Below, piece by piece: positions 4,104 to 60,348 of a stretch of DNA of 60,675 nucleotides; within the stretch, counting starts at the first letter, position 1; the number at the start of each line of letters is the position of its first letter. The translations under genes were made by a program, and so were the position numbers. Below the pieces are notes generated by a model that saw nothing but the letters and a program-made list of their open reading frames with translations, was not told where the DNA came from and did not search any database. The DNA is from Candidatus Uhrbacteria bacterium CG10_big_fil_rev_8_21_14_0_10_48_16 (GTDB lineage: Bacteria; Patescibacteriota; Patescibacteriia; UBA9934; GWF2-40-263): NCBI GenBank assembly GCA_002793515.1, contig PFEU01000008.1, positions 73,952 to 134,626 on the forward strand, given 5' to 3'.

Positions 4104-4157
4104 AGTATCTTCTTTAAAAAAAGTATATCATGAATCATGTTGCCTCTATAGAGACCG

Positions 4158-4186
4158 TTGACGAGATACGAGGAATCTGATAGTCT
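4158..4186 (+). promoter_or_regulatory. Sigma70-type promoter for secG
   Basis: TTGACG-N17-TAGTCT. Confidence 0.55.
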
Positions 4187-4207
4187 TTGCACGAAATCAA
4201 TTCTCCT

Positions 4208-4429
4208 ATGAACTTGGAATCTGTACTAAATATCGCTCAAATCGTCCTTGCTATTCTTCTTGTCGCTTCCATTTTGCTTCAAGCTCAAGGAACAGGACTC
4301 GGAGCGGCTTTTGGAGGAGGCGGTAATGTCTACCGAACAAAACGTGGAGCTGAGAAGAAAATCTTTCAGCTCACCATTATCCTATCTATCCTATTTTTTG
4401 GCGTCGCTCTGGTTAACGCTCTGATCTAG
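4208..4429 (+). CDS. secG: Preprotein translocase subunit SecG
   Basis: ILLQAQGTGLGAAFGGGGNVYRTKRGAEKKIFQLTIIL with two TM helices; ATG 4208 preferred over the track start. Confidence 0.92.
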   Translation: MNLESVLNIAQIVLAILLVASILLQAQGTGLGAAFGGGGNVYRTKRGAEKKIFQLTIILSILFFGVALVNALI

Positions 4430-4455
4430 CAAAAAAAGAGACTCTTCTCTATCTT

Positions 4456-6291
4456 GTGCTTGATATCCGTACATTCTTCAAACGTTTTCGAAAAGACTCA
4501 AGGTCTTCCGCTCGCGACCTGACTATGCGCCAGGTTCTTTCCGTTCGAAAGACGGGAGGAATCCCTTCTTGGAAACAATGGAAGCAACTTCCAAGCGTCC
4601 TTACCCGTTCAGAAAAAAACATCCTGATCGGAGCCACAGGAATTATTGTGCTTTCTCTTCTCATCGCAGGTGTGAGTTACGTGACCACACATCAAATTGT
4701 CATTCCAGCGGTTGGAGGAGAGTACACAGAAGGACTTGTGGGAGAACCTCAGTTTATCAATCCGCTCTATGCCGTCAGTAGTGATGTAGACCAGGATCTC
4801 GTAAGTCTGATCTACTCTGGACTTGTCCGATGGGATCAAGAAGAAGGATTTATTCCAGATCTCGCAGAATCGATTGAAGTAAATGACGAGGGAACAATCT
4901 ACACATTGAAAATTCGTGACAACGCGAAGTTCCACAATGGAGAAGATGTGCTTGCACGCGATGTGGTCTTTACGATCAATGCCATTCAGAACCCTTCTTA
5001 CCGAAGTCCCCTTGCCGATCATTTCTACAACGTGACGGCCGTTCAAGAAGATGACAAAACGGTTTCTTTTATCTTAGAAGAAGCGTTCGCTCCGTTCATA
5101 CAGCACCTGACCGTCGGAATCCTTCCATCAAGTCTCTGGGCAGAGATTCTGCCACAAAATGCTCCTTTGGCCGCGTTCAATTTACAACCCGTTGGTTCAG
5201 GTCCTTACACATTCGCAGAATTTACAAAGGATAAGAAAGGATCCATTCGAAGCTATAGCATCAAACGCAATAGCAACTATTATTTCGAGGCTCCATACAT
5301 TGAAGATATCCATTTCAAATTCTATCCTGACATCTTCGCACTTCACGAAGCACTCCAAAACAAAAACATCGAAGGGGTCAGTGTGGTCGGATTTGATCAA
5401 CGTGAAAAAATACTCACAAATAGAAATGTCGAATTGCTTGAACCATTCCTTCCAAGAGAGACCGTCCTATACTTCAATCAAGACTTGAGCCCTGCCCTGA
5501 AAGACGATTCTGTACGCCAGGCCATTGTTTCAGCGATTGATAAAGGGGCGATCGTAAGCGATGTCTATCAAGAGACAGCACGTGTGATTCATAGCCCCAT
5601 ACTCGAAGGCATGATCGGATACGATGAACTCCGAGTGGACATCTACGATCCAACTCAATCCGAAACACTTCTCGAGGAAGCGGGGTATGCCAAACAAGAA
5701 GGAACCGAAATCCGTCTCTTGAAAAAGAGTCTACGCACCGAAGAAACGAGCGATGAAGAAGGAACGGAAACTCCCCAGACACTTCGCTTTACCCTCACGA
5801 CCGTTGACCGAACAGACCTGCGTTTGGTTGCTGAACAGATTGCAGAAGACCTCCATGCGGTTGGCATCGATGTGACTGTGAACCTCGTCCCTTCTGAGCG
5901 GATTGGAATTGACATCATTGATCCTCGAAACTTCGAGCTTCTGTTGGCTCCCATCATGCTCGAAGCAGATCCAGATCCCTACCTGTTCTGGCACTCTTCC
6001 CAAACAAAAACATCTGGGTTAAACCTCGTCGGATATAGTAATGCGGATGTCGATACCCTTTTAGAAGAGGCTCGTATAGAACGTGATCCTGAAATCCGAT
6101 CGCAAAAATATCAAGAGTTCCAAGAACTTCTTGCCACAGATGCTCCAGCGGTCTATCTCTATCAATCGACCTACGGATACGGACTCGATACAAAAATTCA
6201 GCATCCTGCACTCAACTCGATTCTTATTCCCTCCGATCGATTCGTCGATATCACCCAGTGGTATATCAAAACCAAAAAGGCTCTCCAGTAA
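4456..6291 (+). CDS. Peptide/nickel ABC transporter substrate-binding protein (family 5) with N-terminal TM anchor; no permease genes adjacent
   Basis: GGEYTEGLVGEPQFINPL, IYSGLV, PDLAES, KFHNGEDV, PVGSGPY motifs. Confidence 0.88.
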   Translation: MLDIRTFFKRFRKDSRSSARDLTMRQVLSVRKTGGIPSWKQWKQLPSVLTRSEKNILIGATGIIVLSLLIAGVSYVTTHQIVIPAVGGEYTEGLVGEPQFINPLYAVSSDVDQDLVSLIYSGLVRWDQEEGFIPDLAESIEVNDEGTIYTLKIRDNAKFHNGEDVLARDVVFTINAIQNPSYRSPLADHFYNVTAVQEDDKTVSFILEEAFAPFIQHLTVGILPSSLWAEILPQNAPLAAFNLQPVGSGPYTFAEFTKDKKGSIRSYSIKRNSNYYFEAPYIEDIHFKFYPDIFALHEALQNKNIEGVSVVGFDQREKILTNRNVELLEPFLPRETVLYFNQDLSPALKDDSVRQAIVSAIDKGAIVSDVYQETARVIHSPILEGMIGYDELRVDIYDPTQSETLLEEAGYAKQEGTEIRLLKKSLRTEETSDEEGTETPQTLRFTLTTVDRTDLRLVAEQIAEDLHAVGIDVTVNLVPSERIGIDIIDPRNFELLLAPIMLEADPDPYLFWHSSQTKTSGLNLVGYSNADVDTLLEEARIERDPEIRSQKYQEFQELLATDAPAVYLYQSTYGYGLDTKIQHPALNSILIPSDRFVDITQWYIKTKKALQ

Positions 6292-10915: not shown

Positions 10916-12147
10916 TGGATCCCATCACTCTCGCTATCATCGCGACACTCGCAACGAGCGGAACGATCGGGACCGCAGCCGGAGCCGTCGCCCTCTACCG
11001 GGCGATTGAACGTGCTGGTTTCCCCAAGACGACACCGTCGGGTAAGCCCATCATGTACGAGCGTCTCACTCCCGAGGAGATCGCCATCCAGATGGCTCGC
11101 CGCGTGGTCATCACCCACACGCTCATCACCATCGGACACGATCGCACCGGCCAGAAGGCTGTAGGCGAACGTATCATCGGCCACCGCAAGGTGGGCGAAC
11201 GCAAGGTGGGCGAGAAGGTCGTTGGTTACAATGTCGTCAGCCACCGCAAGGTGGGTGAACGACAGATCGGTGAGGAACAAGTCGGCGTACGGACAACCGG
11301 TCACCGATGGAAGGAATCACCAATCCCCGCTGACCGTGTGCGCCTTCGCGCCATCCGTGGACTCGAAGAGTTCCACCGTCGCCTTCCGGCCGAGCTCCTG
11401 CTTCCACCAGACATGCAGGAACTCCGCATCCTGACGGGTGAGGCGCAAGTCCTCGCCTTCGAGCGTCGCCTGCCAATCATCGAACCCATCATGGTTCCGA
11501 TCATGGAGGATGTGACCGAGCCTGTCACCGAACCGGTGGTGGAACCCGTTATGGAAGACGTGATGGAAGCTGTCACGGAAACCATCTGGGAACCCGTCTA
11601 CGAACCAGTGACACGCAAGAAGACACACGGCGTCTACATGTTGATCGACTACTCCCAATCCGCGCGGGTCGGCTTGATCGGCTCCATAGGCCGATACTCC
11701 AGACCTGGCCACCCCTGGCGTGGGAAACTCAGCGACCAAGCGGCGGTCGAAACACTCAAACGCTGCCAGCAGGAGGGGATCCCCTTCTACTGCCGTGCAT
11801 TCCACAACGAAGCCCTGAAGCTCTTCACTTGGAGGCCTGGCGACCCTCCGGGGAACGTCATGGACTATCTCAACGGATGCAGACACGGCGGCACAAACAT
11901 TGCCGTAGCCATCGAGACAGCCATCGGCGACCTCACTGGAGAGGGACTCGACTCCGCTGACCTCATGTTGCACACTGACGGAGAAGACAACCTCGACGAA
12001 TCACTCCGTCGACGACTCGACCAAGCCAACGTGCGTCTGCACGTCCAGCTCTATGGTGTAGAGAACGAGACGCTTCGGCGACTCGCCCACACCTGGAGCC
12101 TGTGCCCCACCAATCGCTACCTCTCGCAGGTAGTCACGAACTCCTGA
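10915..12147 (+). CDS. ViaA/CoxE-like von Willebrand A domain protein with N-terminal hydrophobic helix and internal repeats
   Basis: MIDAS motifs IDYSQS, GGTNIAVAI, HTDGED; ViaA-like RRLPAELLL motif; start overlaps the ATPase stop. Confidence 0.8.
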   Translation: MDPITLAIIATLATSGTIGTAAGAVALYRAIERAGFPKTTPSGKPIMYERLTPEEIAIQMARRVVITHTLITIGHDRTGQKAVGERIIGHRKVGERKVGEKVVGYNVVSHRKVGERQIGEEQVGVRTTGHRWKESPIPADRVRLRAIRGLEEFHRRLPAELLLPPDMQELRILTGEAQVLAFERRLPIIEPIMVPIMEDVTEPVTEPVVEPVMEDVMEAVTETIWEPVYEPVTRKKTHGVYMLIDYSQSARVGLIGSIGRYSRPGHPWRGKLSDQAAVETLKRCQQEGIPFYCRAFHNEALKLFTWRPGDPPGNVMDYLNGCRHGGTNIAVAIETAIGDLTGEGLDSADLMLHTDGEDNLDESLRRRLDQANVRLHVQLYGVENETLRRLAHTWSLCPTNRYLSQVVTNS

Positions 12148-12179
12148 ATGCACAAATAGGAGAACCCACCTCCTACCTC

Positions 12180-12252
12180 CCCACCACACACGCTGGTGGG
12201 ATTTTTATTTTCATCAAAAAGAAAAGCACCCGGACTCCGTGGAGTTGGGTGC
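12180..12252. terminator. Back-to-back terminators between convergent accessory operons
   Basis: CCCACCA/TGGTGGG plus T tract (+ strand); GCACCC...GGGTGC preceded by an A tract (- strand). Confidence 0.7.
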
Positions 12253-12262
12253 GCGTGTGTGA

Positions 12263-13447
12263 TCACTCGTAGTGTCTGCTTCGACTTGACGTCCACTCTT
12301 CGTGACGATTGTTGATGATCCAGAAGCTCAGGCCGAGGTTGATCAAAAGCGTCAGGAAGTAGGAGAGGACGACCGCCCAGCCGGGTGGCTCCACCGTAAG
12401 GTAAGAGAAGTCAGCGAAGGGCTTACGAACGAAGCGCTTGCGCACTTCTGGGACCATGTAGTCCACGAGATCAACGAGGTCGAGCGTCCCCTGGTTCAGG
12501 GCGTACTCACGGACATCGATCTTGAGACGATCCTGTTCGGTCCACGAGATGACGTGGGTCCAGGTAACCTTGCCAGATCGGTCGGTGCCAAGGGCGAGGA
12601 TGAACTCGTTCTTGTTCCCACCCTTCCAGTAGCTCTCCTGAGCAAGTCCAGTCTCGAGGGTTGATTCGGGTCCGAAGACCAGTACGAACATCTTGACTTG
12701 CTTGTTCCTTCCAATCTTGGCGTTCCAGAACCGTAGGAGCGTATCCGCTTCCCTCGTTTCTGACCCACCATTCCCCAGGATGGCTGGTTGATCCCAGCTT
12801 CCGATCCCTGGGTACTCATAGAGACCCCAGACCTTCGGATTCACCTCTTCGAAGTTGAAGACGGAAGTGGAGGCCTGAACGCGGTTCTCGTAGGTGTGTC
12901 TTGTTGTGACCTCGACGAAGCTCGCGTCGTCCTTCGTGTTCCACGTAGCGACGTACTTGTCACCGTCGATAGAGTGGTAATCACGGTGCATGTCCACGAA
13001 GACACGACTATGCCACTTGCTGACAAGACCTTCGAACTGGCCTGAGCTGATGGACTGCGATTCTCCGTTGGAGTCGTGGAGAACCCAACGTGGTGGATGG
13101 TCGTCTACATCGTAGAGATGCTCCGTGCCGCAGGCGACACGTTCGGTGCAGGAGTAGGTGCTCCCATCTGAGTTGGTACAGGTAGACGGTTGGTCACAGT
13201 ACTTCGTGTGCGTACAAGGAACCTCCTCGTCCCAGCGCTCGAAGTACTCGGCATGCGTTGCCCATCCGCCCCAGAACTCGGTATCCGCCGTCTGCACCAT
13301 CTCGGTCCCATACTTGAACCCAGCGATGCACACGATCGAAACCGCGAACGGAACGATGAACTCCCAGGCGACCGTCTTGTGACGGAACCAGGCATACAGA
13401 ACGATTGCCACAACGATCGGGATCGCCATGGCTCCCCAGATGATCAT
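12263..13447 (-). CDS. Hypothetical membrane protein (2 N-terminal TM, Cys-rich insert, alpha/beta TPM-like region, C-terminal TM); GC-rich
   Basis: 394-aa ORF with SD AGGAG and GC-rich codons; TPM-like call is by eye only. Confidence 0.75.
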   Translation of the reverse strand: MIIWGAMAIPIVVAIVLYAWFRHKTVAWEFIVPFAVSIVCIAGFKYGTEMVQTADTEFWGGWATHAEYFERWDEEVPCTHTKYCDQPSTCTNSDGSTYSCTERVACGTEHLYDVDDHPPRWVLHDSNGESQSISSGQFEGLVSKWHSRVFVDMHRDYHSIDGDKYVATWNTKDDASFVEVTTRHTYENRVQASTSVFNFEEVNPKVWGLYEYPGIGSWDQPAILGNGGSETREADTLLRFWNAKIGRNKQVKMFVLVFGPESTLETGLAQESYWKGGNKNEFILALGTDRSGKVTWTHVISWTEQDRLKIDVREYALNQGTLDLVDLVDYMVPEVRKRFVRKPFADFSYLTVEPPGWAVVLSYFLTLLINLGLSFWIINNRHEEWTSSRSRHYE

Positions 13448-13482
13448 GACGATCTCCTACTGTGGTGGGGGGGGTAGAAGTT

Positions 13483-14034
13483 CTAGTTCTTGCCGTTGCT
13501 GAACAGGTCAACGTCGTTCTCCTGACCGGACGAGAAGGCCTCGTCGGTCTTCGCACTCGTCACGAGCTGGATCTTGATCTCGGGTCGACCGCCGACGAAG
13601 ATGGAGCTGGGAAGCGTCTCGCGGAGGTTGTCGTGCTGTGCCTTGATGTCGATCAGCTTCTTCTGCTCACGCGCGAACTTGGTCCGCTCAGCTTCGATGG
13701 AGCGCATCAGGTCCTGGTAGAGCGCAGTGTCGAACTCCGGATTGTGTTCGGTGATCCAGCTCATGAGGGCACCACCGCGGTCATTGCCGTAGCGACCCTC
13801 CATCAGCTCGGGGTAGATCTCCTTGAAGTCCTTCGCGTACTGGCTGCTGACGCCGGCCTTCTGCTGGATGATCTTCCAGGTGGCATCGAACACCACCTCC
13901 AAGTTCTCTTGCTGAGCCTCGGCCAGATTGCGCGTACGCACCTCAGCATTAGTGTAGTTGACGTACATCCCGATCGTCATCATGGCGATGACAGCCAGGC
14001 TCAGGAGGCCGACGAGAAGTCCCTTGTTCTGCAT
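13483..14034 (-). CDS. LemA-like single-TM helical protein; GC-rich
   Basis: N-terminal TM then amphipathic helices ending TLPSSIFVG, reminiscent of the LemA C-terminal FP-x-N-IVA segment. Confidence 0.65.
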   Translation of the reverse strand: MQNKGLLVGLLSLAVIAMMTIGMYVNYTNAEVRTRNLAEAQQENLEVVFDATWKIIQQKAGVSSQYAKDFKEIYPELMEGRYGNDRGGALMSWITEHNPEFDTALYQDLMRSIEAERTKFAREQKKLIDIKAQHDNLRETLPSSIFVGGRPEIKIQLVTSAKTDEAFSSGQENDVDLFSNGKN

Positions 14035-14107
14035 GATCTCACTTCCTTCTGTTTCTCACACATCCGACATCCATGCGCGGTCATCGCGACACAGATACGG
14101 ATGCCAG

Positions 14108-14136
14108 ATAGTAACGAAACATCACTCGCCTGTCAA
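14108..14136 (-). promoter_or_regulatory. Sigma70 promoter for the LemA-like operon
   Basis: Minus strand TTGACA-N17-TACTAT. Confidence 0.7.
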
Positions 14137-14180
14137 CCAAAAACCTCCCTTTAAAGATAAAAGTCCCTTTCTTTTTTCCA

Positions 14181-14209
14181 TTGACAAAAACAGGGAAAAG
14201 TCGTATTCT
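14181..14209 (+). promoter_or_regulatory. Sigma70 promoter for rnpB
   Basis: TTGACA-N17-TATTCT, 6 nt before the RNA 5' end. Confidence 0.75.
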
Positions 14210-14215
14210 TCTGTT

Positions 14216-14650
14216 GTCTCAGGATGGTCGGATGGCTACGTGCGCTTTGCGTGCGAGGAAAGTCCGAACACCCGTTTTATCGCAAGATAAGACGATAAAG
14301 AGAGTCGCTAACGGCGACCAAGGATACGTTTGAGGGTTCGCGGAATTGGAGAAATTCATTCCATGACTCCTGATTCAAACTTTAGGGAAAGTGCCACAGA
14401 GACAATACTAGCCTCGTGCAAACGGGGTGAAAGGTGAAAAGTGATGCTGAGGTTACTCGATCAGTCGGTTGAGTCAGCCACACATCTCGCTCCATGGCGA
14501 CATGGATGCGTGGTAAACCCTCTCTGGTGAAAGAGCAAATTTGGTAGCTCGATGGAGCCCTTCAGCAATGTTGGGACTAGATAGATTGCCATCTCCCTTT
14601 GCGAGTTCGTAGAGGTAGACAAAATTCGGCTTACAGACCAGCCCTGGGAC
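14216..14650 (+). ncRNA. rnpB: RNase P RNA
   Basis: GAGGAAAGTCC, AGTGCCACAGA, GGTAAACCC and ACAAAATTCGGCTTA conserved blocks; P1 helix GTCTCAGG/CCTGGGAC. Confidence 0.96.
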
Positions 14651-14653
14651 ACC

Positions 14654-14682
14654 AAAAATTCTCGCATAACGCGAGAATTTTT
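14654..14682 (+). terminator. rnpB terminator
   Basis: AAAAATTCTCGC/GCGAGAATTTTT. Confidence 0.75.
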
Positions 14683-14687
14683 GTTAC

Positions 14688-14812
14688 CATAACGAATACC
14701 GTCAGCACATTTTCGGCTTATGGGGCCCCACCACCTCATCATCGTACGCCTGAGTACGACTCTTTCGGTGGTACCCCATGCACCAAAACTGCACTCGACG
14801 GTATTCGTTATG
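14688..14812. other. 125-nt long imperfect hairpin closed by a perfect 16-bp inverted repeat, function unknown
   Basis: CATAACGAATACCGTC (14688-14703) / GACGGTATTCGTTATG (14797-14812); inner helices ATGGGG/CCCCAT, ACCACC/GGTGGT, TCGTAC/GTACGA. Confidence 0.7.
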
Positions 14813-14823
14813 AACTTCCCACT

Positions 14824-16236
14824 ATGAAACGCTCAGAACTCACCTTTACGCTCGCGCTTGTTCCCTTTGATTTCCTTGCTCTGTTAGCGGCAGCGATCAC
14901 GGCGTTCTTTGCTCGATTCCATTCGGTATTCACGGCGATTCGTCCGGTCATCTTCGATCTAAACCTTCAAAGCTACCTGAAAGTCGTGGCCCCGATGGTC
15001 CTGGTCTTCTTGTTGGTCTTTGCGCTCTCTGGTCTGTACGGTGTCACGAGACGGTCCATCGCCAATGAATTTTCTCGCATCATTCTTGCGTGTTCGTCAT
15101 CCATGGCACTCGTGTTTGCCATTTCGTTTTTCTCTCTCACCCTATTCGAATCACGCTTCATCGCAATCGCCGCATGGGGACTCTCCATTTTTTTTGTGAC
15201 CGCAGAACGTCTTGTTGTCCGTGGTCTCCAACGAAGCTTGTTACACTTTGGAATCGGAACTCACCGTGTCGTCATCATCGGGAAGACCTCGGCTTCCGAG
15301 GCCCTCGCAAAAGAATTTACCCAAAAGAAACGTCTTGGTTTTCGTATCGTAAGCCACCACAAATCATTTACCAAAGCCCTTGCAAAAGAGCTACGGGAGC
15401 TCAAACGAGCTGATAAAATTGACGAAATTATTCTTGCGGATCCAGAGGCTTCACGCCAAGAGACGCTTGAAATCATCGCTTTCACCGAACAAGAACATTT
15501 AGGCTTTCGCTATTCAGCCGACCTCTTCACCGCAGCAGTCGGTCGGTCGATCATTCATACCTACGCAGGTATTCCTGTGATCGAAGTGCGTAAAACCCCT
15601 CTGGATGGATGGGGAGCGATTTACAAACGACTCTTCGATGTGATGGGGGCACTCATTCTCATCGTCCTCGCTTCTCCGATCATGCTTCTGACCGCCATCG
15701 CGATTAAACTCGATTCACGCGGTCCCGTATTTTTTGCCAAGCTTGATGACGGGAGTGTCTCAAGACGTGTTGGGCAAGGAGGAAAACCTTTCACCTACTT
15801 CAAGTTCCGTTCCATGCGACCAGGGACACATGCGCTCCGCTACCATGAACTCGCAGAAGCAGATACCCGCAAAGGAAGTCCTCTGGTGAAAATTAAAGAC
15901 GATCCTCGCATCACACGCGTTGGAAAATTTATTCGAGCCTTCTCCATCGACGAGCTTCCTGAATTCTTCCTTGTCCTCAGGGGCCACATGTCCCTCGTTG
16001 GACCACGCCCTCACCTTCCAGAAGAAGTCGATGACTACAAACCCGAACAACGCAAAGTTCTCACCATTAAACCGGGAATCACCGGTATGGCGCAAATATC
16101 CGGACGCGCCGATCTCGACTTCGATGATGAAGTACGGCTCGATACCTACTACATCGAACATTGGAGTCCGTGGCTAGATTTCTACATCCTCCTAAAAACC
16201 CCGCTCGTCGTCCTTTTCGGCAGAGGAGCTTCCTGA
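14824..16236 (+). CDS. Undecaprenyl-phosphate sugar phosphotransferase (WcaJ/WbaP family, initiating glycosyltransferase)
   Basis: N-terminal TM helices; KRLFDV, FKFRSM, DPRITRVGKFIRAFSIDELP, SLVGPRP, KPGITGMAQISGR; the track start at 14599 overlaps rnpB and is rejected. Confidence 0.93.
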   Translation: MKRSELTFTLALVPFDFLALLAAAITAFFARFHSVFTAIRPVIFDLNLQSYLKVVAPMVLVFLLVFALSGLYGVTRRSIANEFSRIILACSSSMALVFAISFFSLTLFESRFIAIAAWGLSIFFVTAERLVVRGLQRSLLHFGIGTHRVVIIGKTSASEALAKEFTQKKRLGFRIVSHHKSFTKALAKELRELKRADKIDEIILADPEASRQETLEIIAFTEQEHLGFRYSADLFTAAVGRSIIHTYAGIPVIEVRKTPLDGWGAIYKRLFDVMGALILIVLASPIMLLTAIAIKLDSRGPVFFAKLDDGSVSRRVGQGGKPFTYFKFRSMRPGTHALRYHELAEADTRKGSPLVKIKDDPRITRVGKFIRAFSIDELPEFFLVLRGHMSLVGPRPHLPEEVDDYKPEQRKVLTIKPGITGMAQISGRADLDFDDEVRLDTYYIEHWSPWLDFYILLKTPLVVLFGRGAS

Positions 16237-16312
16237 AAATAAAAGCATCCCTATCGGATGCTTTTATTCTTACTTTGCCCAAAATGCAAGGAATTGCTAG
16301 GATGCTTGGGCT

Positions 16313-17416
16313 ATGAAACTCGCGCTCGTCCATGACTATTTGATCCAGGACGGAGGGGCTGAAAAAGTTGTAGATGTCATGCATGGTCTTTGGCCAGAAG
16401 CTCCCCTCTACACACTCCTCTTTGATCCAAAATCTCTCCCGACCTTCAAAGGTCGGGATATTCGTACTTCCTTTATCGAGAAGCTTCCCTTGGGTCGACG
16501 GAAATACCAGTGGTACCTTCCCTTAATGCCAACCGCCACAGAACATTACAACCTCTCTGAATACGATGTTGTCCTTTCCTCGACCAGCGCCTTTGCCAAA
16601 GGAATTCTCACGCGTGAAGATGCTCTCCATATCTGTTACTGCCATACCCCAACACGCTACCTTTGGAGTGACACCCACAGCTATATCGAAGAACTTCGTG
16701 TCCCAGGAATCGTAAAAAAAATGCTTCCACCGCTCCTCTCCTATCTGCGCATGTGGGACCGACAGTCCGCCGATCGCGTTGATCTCTTTATTGCAAACTC
16801 AGAAACTGTTCGTCGGCGCATTCAGAAATACTACCGACGAGACGCCGTCGTTATTCATCCTCCAGTAGACACCGATCGTTTTTCCATTTCCAAAGAACCG
16901 AAAACCTATTTTCTCACTGGTGGGCGTCTTGTCGCCTATAAGCGTTACGATCTTGTCATTGAAGCAGCAAACCGCACAGGCCTTCCCCTCAAAATTTTTG
17001 GATCTGGTCCCGTTGAAAAAGACCTCCAAAAAATGGCTCGACCCAATGTCGAATTCCTTGGACGTGTGAGCGACGAAGAACAAGCACGACTCTACGCCGG
17101 CGCACGCGCATTTATTCATCCGCAAGAAGAGGACTTTGGGATTACTCCTGTTGAATCCATGGCCTCAGGTCGTCCCGTCATCGCTTGGCGAAAAGGAGGT
17201 GCCACAGAAACCGTCCAAGAAGGAGTCTCTGGGCAATTTTTTGATGAACAAAGTTGGGAAGAGCTCGCCGACTTCATGATTCGTTTTGATGATCGCCAGT
17301 GGGATCCATCGGCGATCAAATCCTATGCAGAAACATTTTCTCGTAAACGCTTTGAATCAAAACTCACTGAATTAATCGAGCAAACCTGGAAGCAACACAA
17401 CCAACAATCCCTATGA
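16313..17416 (+). CDS. Glycosyltransferase family 4
   Basis: MKLALVHDYLIQDGGAEKV, YCHTPTRYLW, EDFGITPVESMASGRPVIA. Confidence 0.92.
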   Translation: MKLALVHDYLIQDGGAEKVVDVMHGLWPEAPLYTLLFDPKSLPTFKGRDIRTSFIEKLPLGRRKYQWYLPLMPTATEHYNLSEYDVVLSSTSAFAKGILTREDALHICYCHTPTRYLWSDTHSYIEELRVPGIVKKMLPPLLSYLRMWDRQSADRVDLFIANSETVRRRIQKYYRRDAVVIHPPVDTDRFSISKEPKTYFLTGGRLVAYKRYDLVIEAANRTGLPLKIFGSGPVEKDLQKMARPNVEFLGRVSDEEQARLYAGARAFIHPQEEDFGITPVESMASGRPVIAWRKGGATETVQEGVSGQFFDEQSWEELADFMIRFDDRQWDPSAIKSYAETFSRKRFESKLTELIEQTWKQHNQQSL

Positions 17417-29716: not shown

Positions 29717-30583
29717 TCAAACCACCTTGCGGTACACCGTTTCAATCGCCTGTTTTACTTCCCGTAACGTCACCTGCTTCTTCCCTTTTTCATTCTTGTG
29801 ACCCCAATTACGGTCCAAGCCAAACGTAAATCCTCCAAAGCGCTCAAATAACTGAATGGCATACGGAGATTCTTGAACATAAATGAGGCCTCGACCGTGT
29901 TCAACAATAATCATGGGGGTAGGTTTCCCAATTTCCTGGACGACAATCCGAGACAAACGAGGACGTAACTGAATATCAGCTCGTGTGCTAATAACGAAAA
30001 ATTCACGCCATTTCTTTTTTCGATCCCACGCCGATTTGGCAAGTTGTTCTTTACGAGCCTCTGTCTTTGGATTGTGCAAATGGGCAACGAGAGAATCGTG
30101 AAATGCCATCACGTCTTGAATTTCTTCCTTTGAATATCCCTCGTCTTGAAGCGCCCACACATATCCTCGATCTTGAATTCCAATCCCTCGAACAAGTTTT
30201 GGCTTATATCCCCATGTTGTTAGTTGCGCATCGGTCACCTTAAACATCTTAAGAAATTGCTCAAGCGAACTTGGAAGAAGTTTCCCATGCTCATCATGTG
30301 CCCGCGAAAGCCCCGTGTAGTGATGATGGTCAATCACATCGAGTTTCACCCCCATCTTTCTCAATTTCTTTTCTGCTTTGAGTCCAGGCATCTCAACCAC
30401 AATCACACGGGAATACCCCCCATCTTTCACATCCTTCACATAATCATGCCCTTTATCCAAAGAAGATCCATGAAACTGTTTGGACTCAATAATAGGAAGT
30501 CCGAGCTTCTGTGCAATCTGCTGAATCATCACAGCCTCTGCATCGTTTGGGGGAATGATTAAAACCGTTTTCTTATATGCCAT
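29717..30583 (-). CDS. DHH-superfamily phosphoesterase, NrN-like
   Basis: Motif string ND-A-E...VVE...IDHH...SSLEQ...QDRGY...GYSKEEI. Confidence 0.65.
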   Translation of the reverse strand: MAYKKTVLIIPPNDAEAVMIQQIAQKLGLPIIESKQFHGSSLDKGHDYVKDVKDGGYSRVIVVEMPGLKAEKKLRKMGVKLDVIDHHHYTGLSRAHDEHGKLLPSSLEQFLKMFKVTDAQLTTWGYKPKLVRGIGIQDRGYVWALQDEGYSKEEIQDVMAFHDSLVAHLHNPKTEARKEQLAKSAWDRKKKWREFFVISTRADIQLRPRLSRIVVQEIGKPTPMIIVEHGRGLIYVQESPYAIQLFERFGGFTFGLDRNWGHKNEKGKKQVTLREVKQAIETVYRKVV

Positions 30584-30723
30584 ACAACGGCATTATAGCA
30601 AGAATACACACGAATGGTCGTTCTCGGTTCCTGTCCACTCAAACTGGACAGGGGTTTTGTGGAGAAGAGACTTTAGAAATTTCATCAAACCGATACACTT
30701 AATGAAGAACCTACCAGGAGACA

Positions 30724-30858
30724 GTGCCCAGGAACTGCTATGAATGGATAAAACTGGATGGTGCCAAGGTACGACGAGTCAGAAAAAAGGAGACAACATC
30801 CTTTTCTTACGAGGAACTCTCCTCGAACCGGTCCCCGGAGGATCCCATGGGTGGCTAA
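30724..30858 (+). CDS. Small protein, 44 aa (MPRNCYEWIKLDGAKVRRVRKKETTSFSYEELSSNRSPEDPMGG)
   Basis: GTG start 3 nt after AGGAG; own terminator at 30886-30914; below the ORF-track cutoff. Confidence 0.5.
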   Translation: MPRNCYEWIKLDGAKVRRVRKKETTSFSYEELSSNRSPEDPMGG

Positions 30859-30885
30859 CCCAACGCCGACTCTTTCCGAGTCCCT

Positions 30886-30914
30886 ACCGATCTACGCAGA
30901 TCGGTTTTCTTTTT
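30886..30914 (+). terminator. Intrinsic terminator after the 44-aa ORF
   Basis: ACCGATCT-ACGC-AGATCGGT followed by TTTCTTTTT. Confidence 0.7.
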
Positions 30915-31043
30915 ACACAAAAACGGCTATCAAGGATTGCCGTTTTTGCCTCTCGTGCTCTTCCTGAATACACGAGCAAATCTTGAACTCAGGAAGAGTA
31001 CCCCAGTGCGTGAGCGTGTTCTGAAGTCTCTTCCCCTTTGCAC

Positions 31044-31280
31044 TTATTGGTGCGTGAGAGGGAAGATGTCTCTCTGAAGCCAAACGGCCTCATCGAGAAA
31101 CTGCTGAATCAGCGAGTCCCCGTTCTTGCGAACGCGGGCCCATTCGATCAGCTGTGCGAGCGTACCGGCACGCACCTTCTTCTCATCGTCCTGCAAGGTG
31201 ACCTGCGGGTCAGCGAGAGTGAGGTACGAATCACTTCCCTCTGGGAAGCACCGGACGACGAGGTAACTCGGATGCGCCAT
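31044..31280 (-). CDS. Small hypothetical protein, 78 aa
   Basis: AAGGAG five nt before ATG; GC-rich third positions. Confidence 0.6.
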   Translation of the reverse strand: MAHPSYLVVRCFPEGSDSYLTLADPQVTLQDDEKKVRAGTLAQLIEWARVRKNGDSLIQQFLDEAVWLQRDIFPLTHQ

Positions 31281-31559
31281 GGATTCTCCTTGAGGTTGAA
31301 TTCCACTCTCTTGCGACCGACCGCGACAAGCTCATCGATCGAAAGGGAGTGGAGCAGGACCTCGGCGACGTTGATTCGCGTTGGTCCCGCAGGAGAAAGG
31401 GAATGGATGCCTGTTACCTCATCCTTCACACAACGAACCCCACAGCAGTGGTCTTCGTTGGATGCTCTTACTAAACTTCCATCACTCGAGGCGATGAAAT
31501 AGTTAGTGTACCGACGTCCCCACGCCGGAGTTTTGAGCAACAGCGTCTTGCAACGATGT

Positions 31560-32338
31560 CATTCACCACCTATCAGTGATGCTCACTACAGGAACACGAT
31601 CAGATCGTGTTAGGCGCGACCAGAAGAGGTCGCCTCACAGGATGGCAGACCATGGGGGTCTGCTTGGACAGTCACCTCCTGAATGAAATCTGCTGACCGA
31701 CCAAAGGGTGTCCAGCCCTAAAGTCGGAAGGAAGGCCATTCACGATCCGTAGATCGATCTGGCGACAGACTTGTCTTGCGTAAGAACACGGTCTGTCAGC
31801 GTTCCGAGACTCTTTAACGAGCCCACCTTCGGATGAGGTCCCCTTGCATAGGGGCTGTCGATAACTCCACGTCCGCCGACGCAGAACGACACAACACTCA
31901 AGTCTGGGTCTGCCTCCCATATTTGTGACTCAACGAACGAGCCACCTCTGTACTGGGTGAACGGGGGGTGTCTTGTCCCGCTCTTCCAACCATCACTATG
32001 CGTCGTTGCCAGCAACACATAGTTTGGCCCCAGGGATTTGACCCCTCTGAAGACACGGCTGGGGTTCCGTATCTCAGATGGAATCAAATCTCTGGGGCAA
32101 TAGGCCCCCAGACTCATTTCTCTCTTACTTGTCGGAAGCGAAGCGTCCGACCTGGTTACAGATAATTCGCTTCAAGTCCTTTGACTTGGGAATTACTGCC
32201 AGAGTGCCGTGAAAAGACGGATAACGCGATATATTGCGATTTTTTCTACGATATTCAGGGGCGTCTTTTAAACAAACAGTCCAGAATGAGAGTTATTTGA
32301 ATGTGATGTACTTGTTTGTTGTCTCTGACATGAGTCAA
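31560..32338 (-). ncRNA. Candidate large structured RNA or very long structured leader; boundaries approximate
   Basis: Downstream of a consensus promoter; at least 10 hairpins in 31593-32151; G-U pairs and a cUACGg loop fit the minus strand. Confidence 0.5.
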
Positions 32339-32344
32339 CCCAAT

Positions 32345-32373
32345 AAGCTATCATGGATAGAAAATACTGTCAA
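32345..32373 (-). promoter_or_regulatory. Sigma70 promoter, leftward
   Basis: Minus strand TTGACA-N17-TAGCTT with TG extension. Confidence 0.65.
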
Positions 32374-32491
32374 GGGTTTCTGGATCGATATTTAGTATTT
32401 AGCTAAATATAGCTAAAAATAATGTTCAAAGTGAGCGAACATATAAAAGCCTAGAGAAATACTGTTGGCTCATATATCTGTCTATTAATCC

Positions 32492-32520
32492 TTGACATTG
32501 AGACGAAAAGCTGTTATAGT
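32492..32520 (+). promoter_or_regulatory. Sigma70 promoter, rightward
   Basis: TTGACA-N17-TATAGT with TG extension. Confidence 0.75.
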
Positions 32521-32526
32521 CTGTTG

Positions 32527-33035
32527 TTCTGTAAATCTGACGACGTGGGTGCACAAGTGCCCAACCGTCCGCCAGACAGACAGGGAGCGGACCATGAACG
32601 GATGATGTAAAAGTCGAAAGACAAGATCGAAACGACCTGAAATACGGTCGACATCGCCAGTTCATGGCCACAAGTTTTTAGTCACCCCCAACCCAAACCA
32701 GGAGAAATCAATTCCATAACCCAACAGAAGTCCTCTTCAAACGCCAATCCACCCTGGATTCGGCCCAGATCAGGACTCTTCACGTTCGACGCCCGAACAA
32801 CGAAAGGAGTTCAAGCGTCAACATGGTCTCCCTGAGACCATCGTACGAGACAAGGATGCGTACGGACGTGTAAATCTGTTGGGAGGTGGTACATGGGTGG
32901 CTAGCCCGCGCGCGTTGATCCCGGGTTCCGGATGAGCATCTCGCTTGTCCGGACCCGGGGGAGCCGCCTACCCTTCTCTACAGAACACACGACCTTACGC
33001 GAGCCGACTCCACGAAATGGGTCGGTCTTGTCTTT
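32527..33035 (+). ncRNA. Candidate ~500-nt structured non-coding RNA; boundaries approximate
   Basis: Promoter at the 5' end, terminator-like hairpin 33004-33035, multibranch helices, GAAA tetraloop, no ORF of 60 aa or more. Confidence 0.55.
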
Positions 33036-33169
33036 ATAAAAGAGAAAAACACATCGTCAGGAACCGCTAAACGAGATGAGATGCGCCGTCCTGGAAAGAA
33101 AAAATTGCCTCATCGTACCAATACGTACGTTGAGGCAATTTTTTCTTGAAGGACAAGCAGATCACTCGT

Positions 33170-33925
33170 TTAGCGGTTCCTGTAGGGATCGACACGACAG
33201 ACGGCCCATGAGGCATTAAACAAAACACGTGCCATCTCCGCGAATGTTTTACTTTCAATAATCACGGTCACCATCTTTCCAACGAACTCCACAAACGCCA
33301 CGCGATTCTCATAAATCCAGATCTCTCCACTAAACTCTCCAAACTCTGGAAGGAGCCGACAGTACTCTGCATTCTTTCGCGGGTTTCGAAGTTCTCCTCG
33401 ATGAAGCATTTTGATCTTTACCCGAGAATCATCTAGCGCTTTACGCGCATCGAGTAACATATTCTCATCCATCCCCTCATACACCACATCAATGTTTGCG
33501 AGTTCTAATAACTCTTTCGGATGCACGGAAACCAGATCGGTAAACAACGCATAAATCGCTTCACGCCCCTCAAAAAATCGCACCGTAGGACGTTCCCCTC
33601 CTGACATCATCTTCATCTCAACGAGAGACCGAGAAAACGTATCAATCCGTTCCTCAAGATCATGCACGCGACTTTTAAAATACGCGACTGCTCGCTCAGG
33701 ATCTTCCGCACTAAAAAATTTCTTCTTCCCTCGCTCAAACGTGGACATAAGTCCTCGGTCCTGAAGACCCGCAATCACATCGTACGTTGCCGTTCGAGAG
33801 AGTTTGGCGTGCTTGGCAATTTCTTGCACGGACGTCGGACCAAGTTTTAAGGAGGCGAGATACACACGAGTCTCTGTGGGAGAAAGTCCAAGCTCGGTAA
33901 GGAGCTTCATGAAATCCATGGCCAT
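33170..33925 (-). CDS. TrmB-family transcriptional regulator
   Basis: LGLSPTETRVYLASLKLG...IAKHAKLSRTATYDVIAGLQDRGL HTH; C-terminal EIWIYENRVAF...IIESK sensor-like domain. Confidence 0.88.
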   Translation of the reverse strand: MAMDFMKLLTELGLSPTETRVYLASLKLGPTSVQEIAKHAKLSRTATYDVIAGLQDRGLMSTFERGKKKFFSAEDPERAVAYFKSRVHDLEERIDTFSRSLVEMKMMSGGERPTVRFFEGREAIYALFTDLVSVHPKELLELANIDVVYEGMDENMLLDARKALDDSRVKIKMLHRGELRNPRKNAEYCRLLPEFGEFSGEIWIYENRVAFVEFVGKMVTVIIESKTFAEMARVLFNASWAVCRVDPYRNR

Positions 33926-60133: not shown

Positions 60134-60348
60134 AAAGGGTTCTTTAATTTTACTAAATAAGGGTAGCGGCAAGAATCAATTACTCGTTCACGTATTTCAC
60201 GTGATGAAAGTTTGATTCGGTTTTCAAAATGGAATGAGATGCGCCGCTCTGGAGCCATGAAAGATTTTGAGACGACCAAATGGTCGTTGAAAAATTTTCA
60301 TGGCGAAGAGCAAGCAGATCGTCCATTTTGGAAATCGAATGCATGAGT

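Follow-up and report, generated by a model that had tools for sequence, protein, structure and literature searches.

A large, heavily folded non-coding RNA of about 1,055 nt, which matches no described RNA family, is encoded on the minus strand of the genome of Candidatus Uhrbacteria bacterium CG10_big_fil_rev_8_21_14_0_10_48_16, although no transcript has yet been observed. The window, i.e. the whole stretch of DNA that was analysed, comprises 60,675 nucleotides (GenBank assembly GCA_002793515.1, contig PFEU01000008.1, positions 73,952 to 134,626), and within it the RNA extends from an inferred start at about 32338 to 31281. It belongs to a previously undescribed RNA family found so far only in Uhrbacteria-type bacteria of the Candidate Phyla Radiation (CPR), with relatives at the same locus and in the same orientation in four other genomes, designated here L001 (the closest homologue), L006, L007 and L008. 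The initial annotation had proposed for 31560-32338 an undescribed large structured RNA or a giant leader on the minus strand with no protein inside, and this interpretation is supported. The interval, however, covers only the 5' three quarters of the RNA, which continues about 280 nt further in the 3' direction. The sequence is identical in more than 10 independent assemblies, so it is not an assembly artefact.

The 779-nt interval has a minimum free energy of -306.3 kcal/mol and z = -6.0 against shuffles on the minus strand, in comparison to -274.4 kcal/mol and z = -3.5 on the plus strand, and the two-species consensus fold gives -338 and -271 kcal/mol, respectively. The 3' 320 nt of the RNA have a z of -3.3. 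In the consensus fold with L001, 285 pairs are found, of which 27 changed on both sides and none is broken. The fast-evolving core (31762-32200, minus strand) comprises 16 helices with about 70% identity to L001; all of its 120 pairs are kept (100% of cells paired) and 21 changed on both sides, against 0-4 when partners are slid, and 0/500 shuffles reach this. Nearly all of the helices listed in the initial annotation reappear in the minimum free energy or consensus structures. Several covary with L001: 31593-31611 (A-U to G-C), the cUACGg hairpin at 31743-31756 (2 compensatory pairs), 31840-31854 (3 compensatory pairs), 31995-32023 (3 compensatory pairs) and the long hairpin at 32035-32090. 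The helices 31645-31663, 31697-31727 and 31764-31797 are present but invariant, whereas 31616-31633 is weakened by a mismatch in L001. The hairpin 32131-32151 is real but specific to this genome, a clean insertion relative to L001, where a 32-nt gap removes it together with a few flanking bases. The helix 32091-32112 can form only in the window and L001, and it competes with the base of the long hairpin (32098-32090 with 32035-32027), which is the pairing that covaries across five genomes.

The interval does not code for protein. In L001 the ATG of the internal 125-aa open reading frame (ORF) is ATC and there are stops in all frames. The first of the small downstream ORFs that the initial annotation had placed behind the RNA (31540-31283) is part of the RNA and not a gene: its substitutions fall 9/6/8 by codon position (6 synonymous against 13 non-synonymous), its start codon is lost in L001, a further locus (L025) carries indels of 1 and 5 nt, no gene caller ever called it, and no protein in a database of 5.8 billion sequences matches this frame. 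No Pfam hit was obtained for any internal ORF, and there was no blastn hit in 50,697 phage records. Of four pattern scans of IMG/VR three found nothing, and one found a single chance match inside a coding region with no hairpin. It could be argued that the region is merely a decayed gene or mobile-element remnant with incidental hairpins, since it is accessory, being absent from the close relatives L002 and L004, and richer in G+C (0.53-0.58) than the surrounding genes (about 0.45). Nevertheless, pairs are maintained by compensatory change at 70% identity, the promoter is conserved in five genomes, part of an apical loop is invariant, and no protein, Pfam, phage or other similarity was found in any frame, so this explanation is highly unlikely.

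No Rfam 15 family matches the RNA. At the gathering score the whole window gave only rRNA, RNase P RNA and tRNAs, all elsewhere, and at E<=10 only chance microRNA-type hairpin hits appeared over 31000-33200; six related loci also gave nothing. Group II introns were not indicated, as neither Intron_gpII nor group-II-D1D4 hits appeared even at E<=10 and there is no reverse-transcriptase ORF. No described large RNA of CPR bacteria was found in the literature. A scan of metagenomes, in which only two patterns were used, returned only an identical copy (L024).

The family always sits between a TrmB-like regulator gene and a conserved 288-aa gene, for which no Pfam, NCBIfam, PHROG or PDB sequence match was found. 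It is always driven by the same promoter, one of a divergent pair flanking a palindromic operator-like site. In the window this promoter (32345-32373, minus strand) consists of a -35 TTGACA at 32373-32368, a 17-nt spacer and an extended -10 TGATAGCTT with the hexamer TAGCTT at 32350-32345, and the same TTGACA-N17-TAG(C/T)(C/T)T promoter is conserved in L001, L006, L007 and L008. The palindrome TTTAGCTAAA (32398-32407) lies between the two divergent promoters and is a candidate operator; related palindromes are located at the same place in L001 (TTTAGCTAAA), L007 and L008 (GCTAAATTTAGC) and L006 (a near match). Between the two divergent RNAs only 11-13-nt chance-level matches were found.

The family is modular. 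In L007 it is a roughly 260-nt form that appears to stand alone and ends in a terminator-like hairpin, while elsewhere it is 1-4 kb long, with lineage-specific hairpins and tandem duplications of the 3' domain. Only five genomes carry the RNA and only two are alignable end to end; the architecture is best supported for the core hairpin, the X-Y module described below and the core shared by the window and L001. The core long hairpin (32027-32098, minus strand) is the only element alignable in all five genomes; of its 27 pairs 13 show compensatory changes, and its base helix changes from GCCCCAG/CUGGGGC to UUCAAAA/UUUUGG in L007. Its 8-nt apical loop, AACCCCAG at 32066-32059, follows the pattern [A/U][A/C]CCCCAG across the genomes, in which CCCCAG is invariant. 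The 3' domain (31283-31728, minus strand) is highly conserved (about 93% identity to L001) and is duplicated in tandem in L006 (2 copies) and L008 (about 4 copies). Its most often repeated motif is an AAACU-CCGGCGU-GGGG-ACGUCGG hairpin with a G-rich loop (31511-31533, minus strand), present in one copy in the window and L001, two in L006 and at least six in L008, with covarying stems. For the terminal hairpins X (31390-31354) and Y (31353-31302), seven aligned copies gave 25 pairs, 13 with compensatory changes, with 93.7% of cells paired, and 0/500 shuffles reach this.

The RNA runs without a terminator into ORF2 (31280-31044, minus strand), a real 78-aa gene of unknown function and the only real gene among the small downstream ORFs. 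It has a strong Shine-Dalgarno sequence, and about 7 of 10 changes in its conserved core are synonymous by hand count on the alignment. Only 6 family members are known; the one long contig, carrying the member P0005, shows the same gene order with a 1,259-nt gap where the RNA should be, and the others are short contigs giving only the 3' 110-270 nt. The AlphaFold2 model of ORF2 (pLDDT 88) has three strands and two helices and no significant PDB match, the best being MbtH-like proteins at E about 1.5, and no Pfam, NCBIfam or PHROG hit was obtained. The Shine-Dalgarno sequence AAGGAG (31286-31291, minus strand) is predicted, in consensus and centroid folds, to pair with CUCCU upstream of hairpin X, so that X and Y sit in a three-way junction; this pairing is invariant between the window and L001, the two genomes that have it.

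These observations raise the possibility of a purely cis-acting leader (a riboswitch, attenuator or thermometer type) gating whatever gene follows, originally the 288-aa gene and here ORF2. The X-Y module abuts a strong Shine-Dalgarno sequence in the window, L001, L025 and L006, this sequence is predicted to be sequestered, no terminator lies before ORF2, and in L007 a terminator-like hairpin lies upstream of the 288-aa gene. However, the downstream genes are unrelated to one another (ORF2, a Csx20-like gene plus a DIP1984-family gene, and Rsr), X-Y copies in L008 are followed by no gene, the 288-aa gene has its own promoter 8-10 nt before its start codon in the window, L002 and L007, no ligand-pocket-like invariant junction was identified, and the size is 5-10 times that of known riboswitches. 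A purely cis-acting leader is unlikely, and homologues with other downstream genes, and one with no adjoining gene, show that the RNA is more than a leader for ORF2.

ORF2 is followed by a 3' element (30958-31006, minus strand) consisting of CUGGGGUAC (31006-30998) and an 11-bp hairpin (30998-30958), and then by an intrinsic terminator-like hairpin (30917-30947, minus strand; ACGGC...GCCGU with an 11-nt loop) followed by UUUUUGUGU, the likely end of the transcription unit at about 30920. The same 3' element follows accessory genes in L001, L006, L008 (3 copies) and two further loci, L027 and L028; in the larger forms of the RNA each accessory gene or gene pair, on the same strand, ends with it. 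Its hairpin covaries and has an invariant G-U pair, which makes it an RNA-level feature on the sense strand. The element is present in all four genomes that have both the RNA and accessory genes and absent from the five loci that have no accessory genes of this kind. CTGGGGTA is otherwise rare, with 2 matches in 60 kb where 0.6 are expected. CUGGGGUA(C) complements the apical loop of the core hairpin, CUGGGGUAC doing so over 9 nt in L006 and L008 and over 7 nt in the window and L001.

On this basis it is tentatively inferred that the RNA is regulatory and works through its C-rich loop as a seed, pairing with the CUGGGGUAC element at the 3' end of its own transcript or with such elements on separate transcripts, which would control 3'-end formation, stability or translation of the accessory-gene mRNAs. 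In this genome the RNA would additionally hold the Shine-Dalgarno sequence of ORF2 in the three-way junction. The pairing rests on complementarity alone, because the element is invariant and does not covary with the loop, and duplex energies of the 3' region against the whole RNA are no better than for shuffled targets. Moreover, L007 has the hairpin with the loop UCCCCCAG but no complementary element within 9 kb (a matching tag would read CUGGGGGA), so the loop must have some function without it, and L008 has one loop but four candidate partners (three 3' elements and one internal copy). Regulatory RNAs such as RsaE/RoxS and RNAIII appear to use C-rich apical loops as seeds, and 5'-3' fold-back pairing probably occurs in mRNAs such as hok (fbi element), icaR and hbs. 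The present RNA similarly has an invariant C-rich sequence in a loop on a covarying stem, a G-rich single-stranded complement next to a 3' hairpin or terminator, and the Shine-Dalgarno sequence of a small gene predicted to be buried in structure, but it is an order of magnitude larger than such small RNAs. A hok-like type I toxin-antitoxin mRNA is not indicated, as ORF2 is predicted to be a soluble protein and not a hydrophobic toxin, and the divergent RNA neither overlaps it nor has extended complementarity to it.

Alternatively, the complementary 9-mers, GTACCCCAG in the hairpin and CTGGGGTAC after each cassette, could be the same DNA site in inverted orientation, serving a site-specific recombinase as in a fim-switch or a shufflon/integron-like system. 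The locus is a hotspot with different cargo in every genome, the cassettes share a common 3' boundary element, and FimB/FimE probably use 9-bp inverted repeats. Nonetheless this is very unlikely: no recombinase gene was noticed in any of the islands, among part of their ORFs and without a dedicated search, all assemblies, including several that span the site, show one orientation, and the adjoining hairpin has G-U pairs that exist only in the sense RNA. As seems to be the case in integron cassette arrays, one conserved promoter-proximal platform is followed by variable, promoter-less genes, each ending in a shared hairpin-forming element; however, no integrase was noticed among these ORFs, again without a dedicated search, the 3' elements are not attC-like and have no GTTRRRY core or R/L box signature, and the platform site is in inverted, not direct, orientation.

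A further possibility is a stand-alone “ornate” RNA acting as a scaffold, assembly or protein partner in the way of OLE, ROOL or GOLLD RNAs, or as a giant Y-RNA-like partner of Ro60/Rsr, the downstream genes being merely co-transcribed partners or cargo and the conserved loop a tertiary, kissing or protein contact. The size and number of helices, the L007 form, which appears to stand alone from promoter to terminator with no gene attached, and the far better conservation of the 3' domain than of ORF2 (93% nucleotide against 52% amino-acid identity) speak in its favour. In L008, about 3.9 kb of RNA with four tandem 3' domains and no ORF2 homologue (about 11620-15340) lies directly upstream of, and on the same strand as, a Ro60/Rsr gene (15615-17180). 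On the other hand, no Rsr gene was detectable by similarity in the 60-kb window or in the parts of L001, L006 and L007 that were searched. The Rsr-binding motif GNCGAAN0-1G (PMC4201824) is absent from the window and L001 RNAs and occurs at about chance frequency, not at homologous positions, in L006 (2) and L008 (3). No YrlA, Y RNA or tRNA-like match and no ARAGORN hit was found in the region, and the RNA is 5-30 times larger than bacterial Y RNAs (YrlA, YrlB, Yrn1/2). This alternative is considered doubtful. Like OLE, GOLLD, ROOL, HEARO and raiA, the RNA is hundreds to more than 1,000 nt long with many covarying helices, peripheral hairpins that come and go between species, a narrow phylogenetic range and a location in an accessory region, but it is fused to downstream protein genes, shows tandem duplication of a whole domain and has a matching 3' element. 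GOLLD, ROOL and OLE form homo-oligomers (PMC12286853).

A more far-reaching, and unlikely though not excluded, idea is a new kind of expression platform for exchangeable accessory genes, in which a large modular RNA recognises through its C-rich loop the CUGGGGUAC tag at the 3' end of every cassette and thereby processes, stabilises, circularises or gates those mRNAs, or, in the most extreme version, is a guide-bearing ribozyme that cleaves or joins RNA at the tag. The adjoining divergent RNA with two three-codon mini-ORFs and the occasional Ro60 gene would then belong to one RNA-centred accessory system of CPR bacteria.

Structured bacterial RNAs of this size with solid covariation support are rare, and each one found so far (RNase P, group I/II introns, OLE, GOLLD, ROOL, HEARO/omega RNA) has turned out to be mechanistically unusual. 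The roughly 1-Mb genomes of CPR bacteria have little room for decoration, yet this RNA occupies 1-4 kb of a variable island. It combines three features not described together before: a loop with an invariant CCCCAG core on a covarying stem, tandem duplication of an entire structured domain between species, and a sequence tag complementary to that loop at the end of each neighbouring accessory gene. If the pairing is not real, the RNA is still a new candidate for structural study, and if it is real, it gives a directly testable rule for how an RNA organises the expression of swapped-in genes.

Folding of window positions 31560-32338 on both strands gave, on the minus strand, an MFE of -306.3 kcal/mol against -249.8 +/- 9.4 for dinucleotide shuffles (z = -6.0), while on the plus strand the MFE was -274.4 kcal/mol (z = -3.5). 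The G+C content rises to 0.53-0.58 over 30850-32200, against about 0.45 in the surrounding genes. The promoter named in the initial annotation is on the minus strand and comprises TTGACA at 32373-32368, a 17-nt spacer and TGATAGCTT with the -10 hexamer at 32350-32345, which places the start near 32338. The helices listed in that annotation are nearly all recovered in the MFE and consensus folds. The sequence is identical over 30500-33200 in five long contigs and identical or nearly so in the shorter contigs that overlap it, all of them coming from independent JGI, ENA and Logan assemblies, and it is therefore not an assembly artefact.

The region is not coding. No internal ORF has a Pfam hit. 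In the closest homologue, a Candidatus Uhrbacteria MAG (L001) whose flanking TrmB protein is 89% identical, the 125-aa ORF (32117-31740) has ATC in place of ATG and stops in all three frames. The frame taken in the initial annotation as the first downstream ORF (31540-31283) stays open in L001, however, its TTG start is lost and its 23 substitutions fall 9/6/8 over the codon positions, with 6 synonymous and 13 non-synonymous codons. A third relative (L025) has 1-nt and 5-nt indels in this frame, and no protein resembling it exists among 5.8 billion predicted proteins. This stretch also folds better than shuffles (z = -3.3) and was therefore assigned to the RNA. The JGI annotation of contig L015 lists a 169-aa product over the large RNA, longer than the 125-aa frame allows under code 11, and a "gene" 728 nt long with a 10-residue product at 4132-4859 (window about 32422-33149, plus strand), exactly over a divergent RNA. 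These odd gene calls may stem from another code or a non-protein feature.

In contrast, the next ORF (ORF2, 31280-31044, minus strand, 78 aa) is real. It has an AAGGAG Shine-Dalgarno sequence 5 nt upstream, and changes in its conserved core (VRxGTLAQLIEWARxRKNG) are mostly synonymous, about 7 of 10 by hand count on the alignment. It has five homologues of 70-79 aa, and the family has only six members among about 15 billion proteins. The predicted fold of three strands and two helices is confident but has no significant PDB neighbour, and the N-terminal 40 residues resemble a unit found 10 times in a 2,399-aa protein (P0003).

The window and L001 align over the whole RNA. The promoter and the first 70 nt are nearly identical, the middle is about 70% identical with hairpin-sized indels, and the last 450 nt are about 93% identical. 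Consensus folding with RNAalifold on the minus strand gives 285 pairs, of which 27 have changes on both sides and none is broken (-338 kcal/mol), whereas the plus strand gives -271 kcal/mol. For the fast-evolving core (31762-32200), all 240 cells of 120 pairs are standard pairs, and 21 pairs changed on both sides, against 0-4 when partners are slid by 1-3 columns; 0 of 500 shuffles reach this. One 11-bp helix (31995-32023) alone carries three compensatory changes and two G-U/G-C changes.

The RNA matches no known family. Rfam 15 at gathering thresholds finds only 23S and 5S rRNA, RNase P RNA and two tRNAs, all elsewhere in the window. The RNase P RNA (class A; 14220-14650, plus strand) is 431 nt long against a 367-position model, at 146.6 bits, and therefore carries insertions. 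With permissive filters at E<=10, the region 31000-33200 gives only chance hairpin matches to microRNA models. The homologous loci gave nothing either, and no similarity to phage genomes or IMG/VR contigs was found.

Thirteen loci encoding relatives of the adjacent TrmB-like regulator were fetched, and the interval between that gene and a conserved 288-aa gene was found to vary greatly in length. It measures 388 nt in locus L002, 1.1 kb in L007 (a minimal form of the RNA), 1.6 kb in L004 (a RelE-type toxin-antitoxin pair at 11419-11926, judged by eye from the ORF translations), 2.6 kb in the window (the RNA and ORF2), 2.9 kb in L001 (the RNA and an ORF2 homologue), 4.8 kb in L006 (the RNA and other accessory genes) and 9.9 kb in L008 (the RNA, Rsr and other genes). 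The interval is an accessory-gene hotspot, and fragments similar to the genes next to ORF2 homologues in L025 and in a further locus, L027, recur inside the L008 island. The 288-aa gene (29717-30583, minus strand) has no Pfam, NCBIfam, PHROG or PDB sequence match. It starts 8-10 nt after an extended -10 promoter (TGCTATAAT) with no Shine-Dalgarno sequence, and since the same holds in L002 and L007 it is nearly leaderless. Just downstream of the TrmB-like gene, a long inverted repeat (33058-33182) has a similar copy between the 5S and 23S rRNA genes (60228-60328; nhmmer E 1e-14), and may be a dispersed hairpin element or a shared terminator or processing stem.

A profile of the window/L001 alignment finds diverged homologues in L006 and L008, at the same position and in the same orientation, and a fifth was found in L007 by inspection. 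All five genomes share the promoter TTGACA-N17-TAG(C/T)(C/T)T, a divergent second promoter and, between the two, a palindrome (TTTAGCTAAA in the window, at 32398-32407, and in L001, GCTAAATTTAGC in L007 and L008, a near match in L006) that looks like an operator, possibly for the adjacent TrmB-family regulator (33170-33925). A second ORF-free transcript (32492-33035, plus strand), divergent from the first, starts at a near-consensus promoter (TTGACA-17-TATAGT with TG, 32492-32520) and ends at a conserved terminator (33003-33026), with no Rfam match. It carries two three-codon mini-ORFs behind GGAGG-type Shine-Dalgarno sequences, AUG-AAC-GGA-UGA (MNG*) at 32594-32605 and AUG-GGU-GGC-UAG (MGG*) at 32893-32904. 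An MGG* or MTG* mini-ORF recurs in L001, L002, L006, L007 and L008, and an MNG* one in L001 and L002, which includes genomes that lack the large RNA.

The one element alignable in all five genomes is a long hairpin at window 32098-32027. Its stem covaries, 13 of 27 pairs having compensatory changes, and its base changes from GCCCCAG/CUGGGGC to UUCAAAA/UUUUGG in L007; its 8-nt apical loop [A/U][A/C]CCCCAG keeps CCCCAG invariant. The forms differ in size. In L007 the RNA is about 260 nt and ends in a terminator-like hairpin before the 288-aa gene, which has its own promoter. In L006 it is about 1.6 kb with its 3' domain duplicated, and in L008 it is about 3.9 kb with about four diverged tandem copies of that domain. 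Each copy contains an AAACUCCGG...CCGG hairpin with a G-rich loop and ends in a pair of hairpins, here called X and Y. Seven aligned X-Y copies show compensatory change in 13 of 25 pairs, and 0 of 500 shuffles reach this.

In the window, L001 and L025 the Y hairpin is followed within 10-15 nt by the Shine-Dalgarno sequence of an ORF2-family gene, and in L006 by that of a different gene. In the folds for the window and L001, that Shine-Dalgarno sequence pairs with a CUCCU just upstream of X. The genes differ by locus: the 78-aa family in the window, L001 and L025 (L027 and another locus, L028, carry the same family, but their upstream RNA could not be aligned or is missing), a weakly Csx20-like 118-aa protein plus a DIP1984-family protein in L006 (13329-14508) and, after a possible weak terminator, a Ro60/Rsr protein in L008 (15615-17180). 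A pure cis-acting leader is harder to reconcile with these unrelated downstream genes and with the gene-less copies. The main rival explanation is a stand-alone scaffold or Y-RNA-like partner, favoured by the L007 form and the Ro60 neighbour in L008. The RNA lacks the tRNA-like module and a conserved Rsr-binding motif of Y RNAs (PMC4201824).

After these genes comes a shared 3' element, the sequence CUGGGGUAC followed directly by a hairpin. It occurs at window 31006-30958, L001 13122, L006 14838, L008 17678/18226/19134, L027 717 and L028 454. In six of these eight copies the hairpin stem can be aligned; it covaries and carries a G-U pair in all six, so it acts as RNA on the sense strand. In L006 the hairpin doubles as a terminator, while in the window a separate terminator follows at 30947-30917. 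CUGGGGUA(C) is the exact complement of the apical loop, over 9 nt in L006 and L008 and over 7 nt in the window and L001. The 8-mer is otherwise rare, with 2 matches in the 60-kb window against 0.6 expected. The element is present in all four genomes that have both the RNA and accessory genes, and is absent from L002, L004, L007, L009 and L010, the last two being further loci examined. A reading of these sequences as DNA recombination sites has against it the RNA-type G-U pairs, the lack of orientation variants, and the fact that no recombinase gene was noticed in the islands, although none was specifically searched for.

By kind, the closest things are the large ornate RNAs (OLE, GOLLD, ROOL), bacterial Y RNAs, small RNAs with C-rich seed loops, mRNAs with 5'-3' fold-back pairing and, at the level of organisation only, integron platforms. 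Membership in each was tested where possible and was not supported, and the RNA is regarded as a new family with no described relative. The finding rests on five genomes, of which two are alignable end to end. It can be said that this is a real, conserved, strand-specific, non-coding structure of about 1,055 nt, belonging to a modular, lineage-restricted family with a conserved promoter, a core hairpin with an invariant CCCCAG in its loop and a matching 3' tag on neighbouring accessory genes. The function is unproven. There are no expression data, loop and tag do not covary, duplex energy over longer stretches is no better than for shuffles, and L007 has the loop but no tag. It is inferred that the loop acts as a seed that pairs with the tag, in cis or in trans, and that locally the RNA also masks the ORF2 ribosome-binding site. 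Such pairing would control the 3' ends, stability or translation of the accessory mRNAs.
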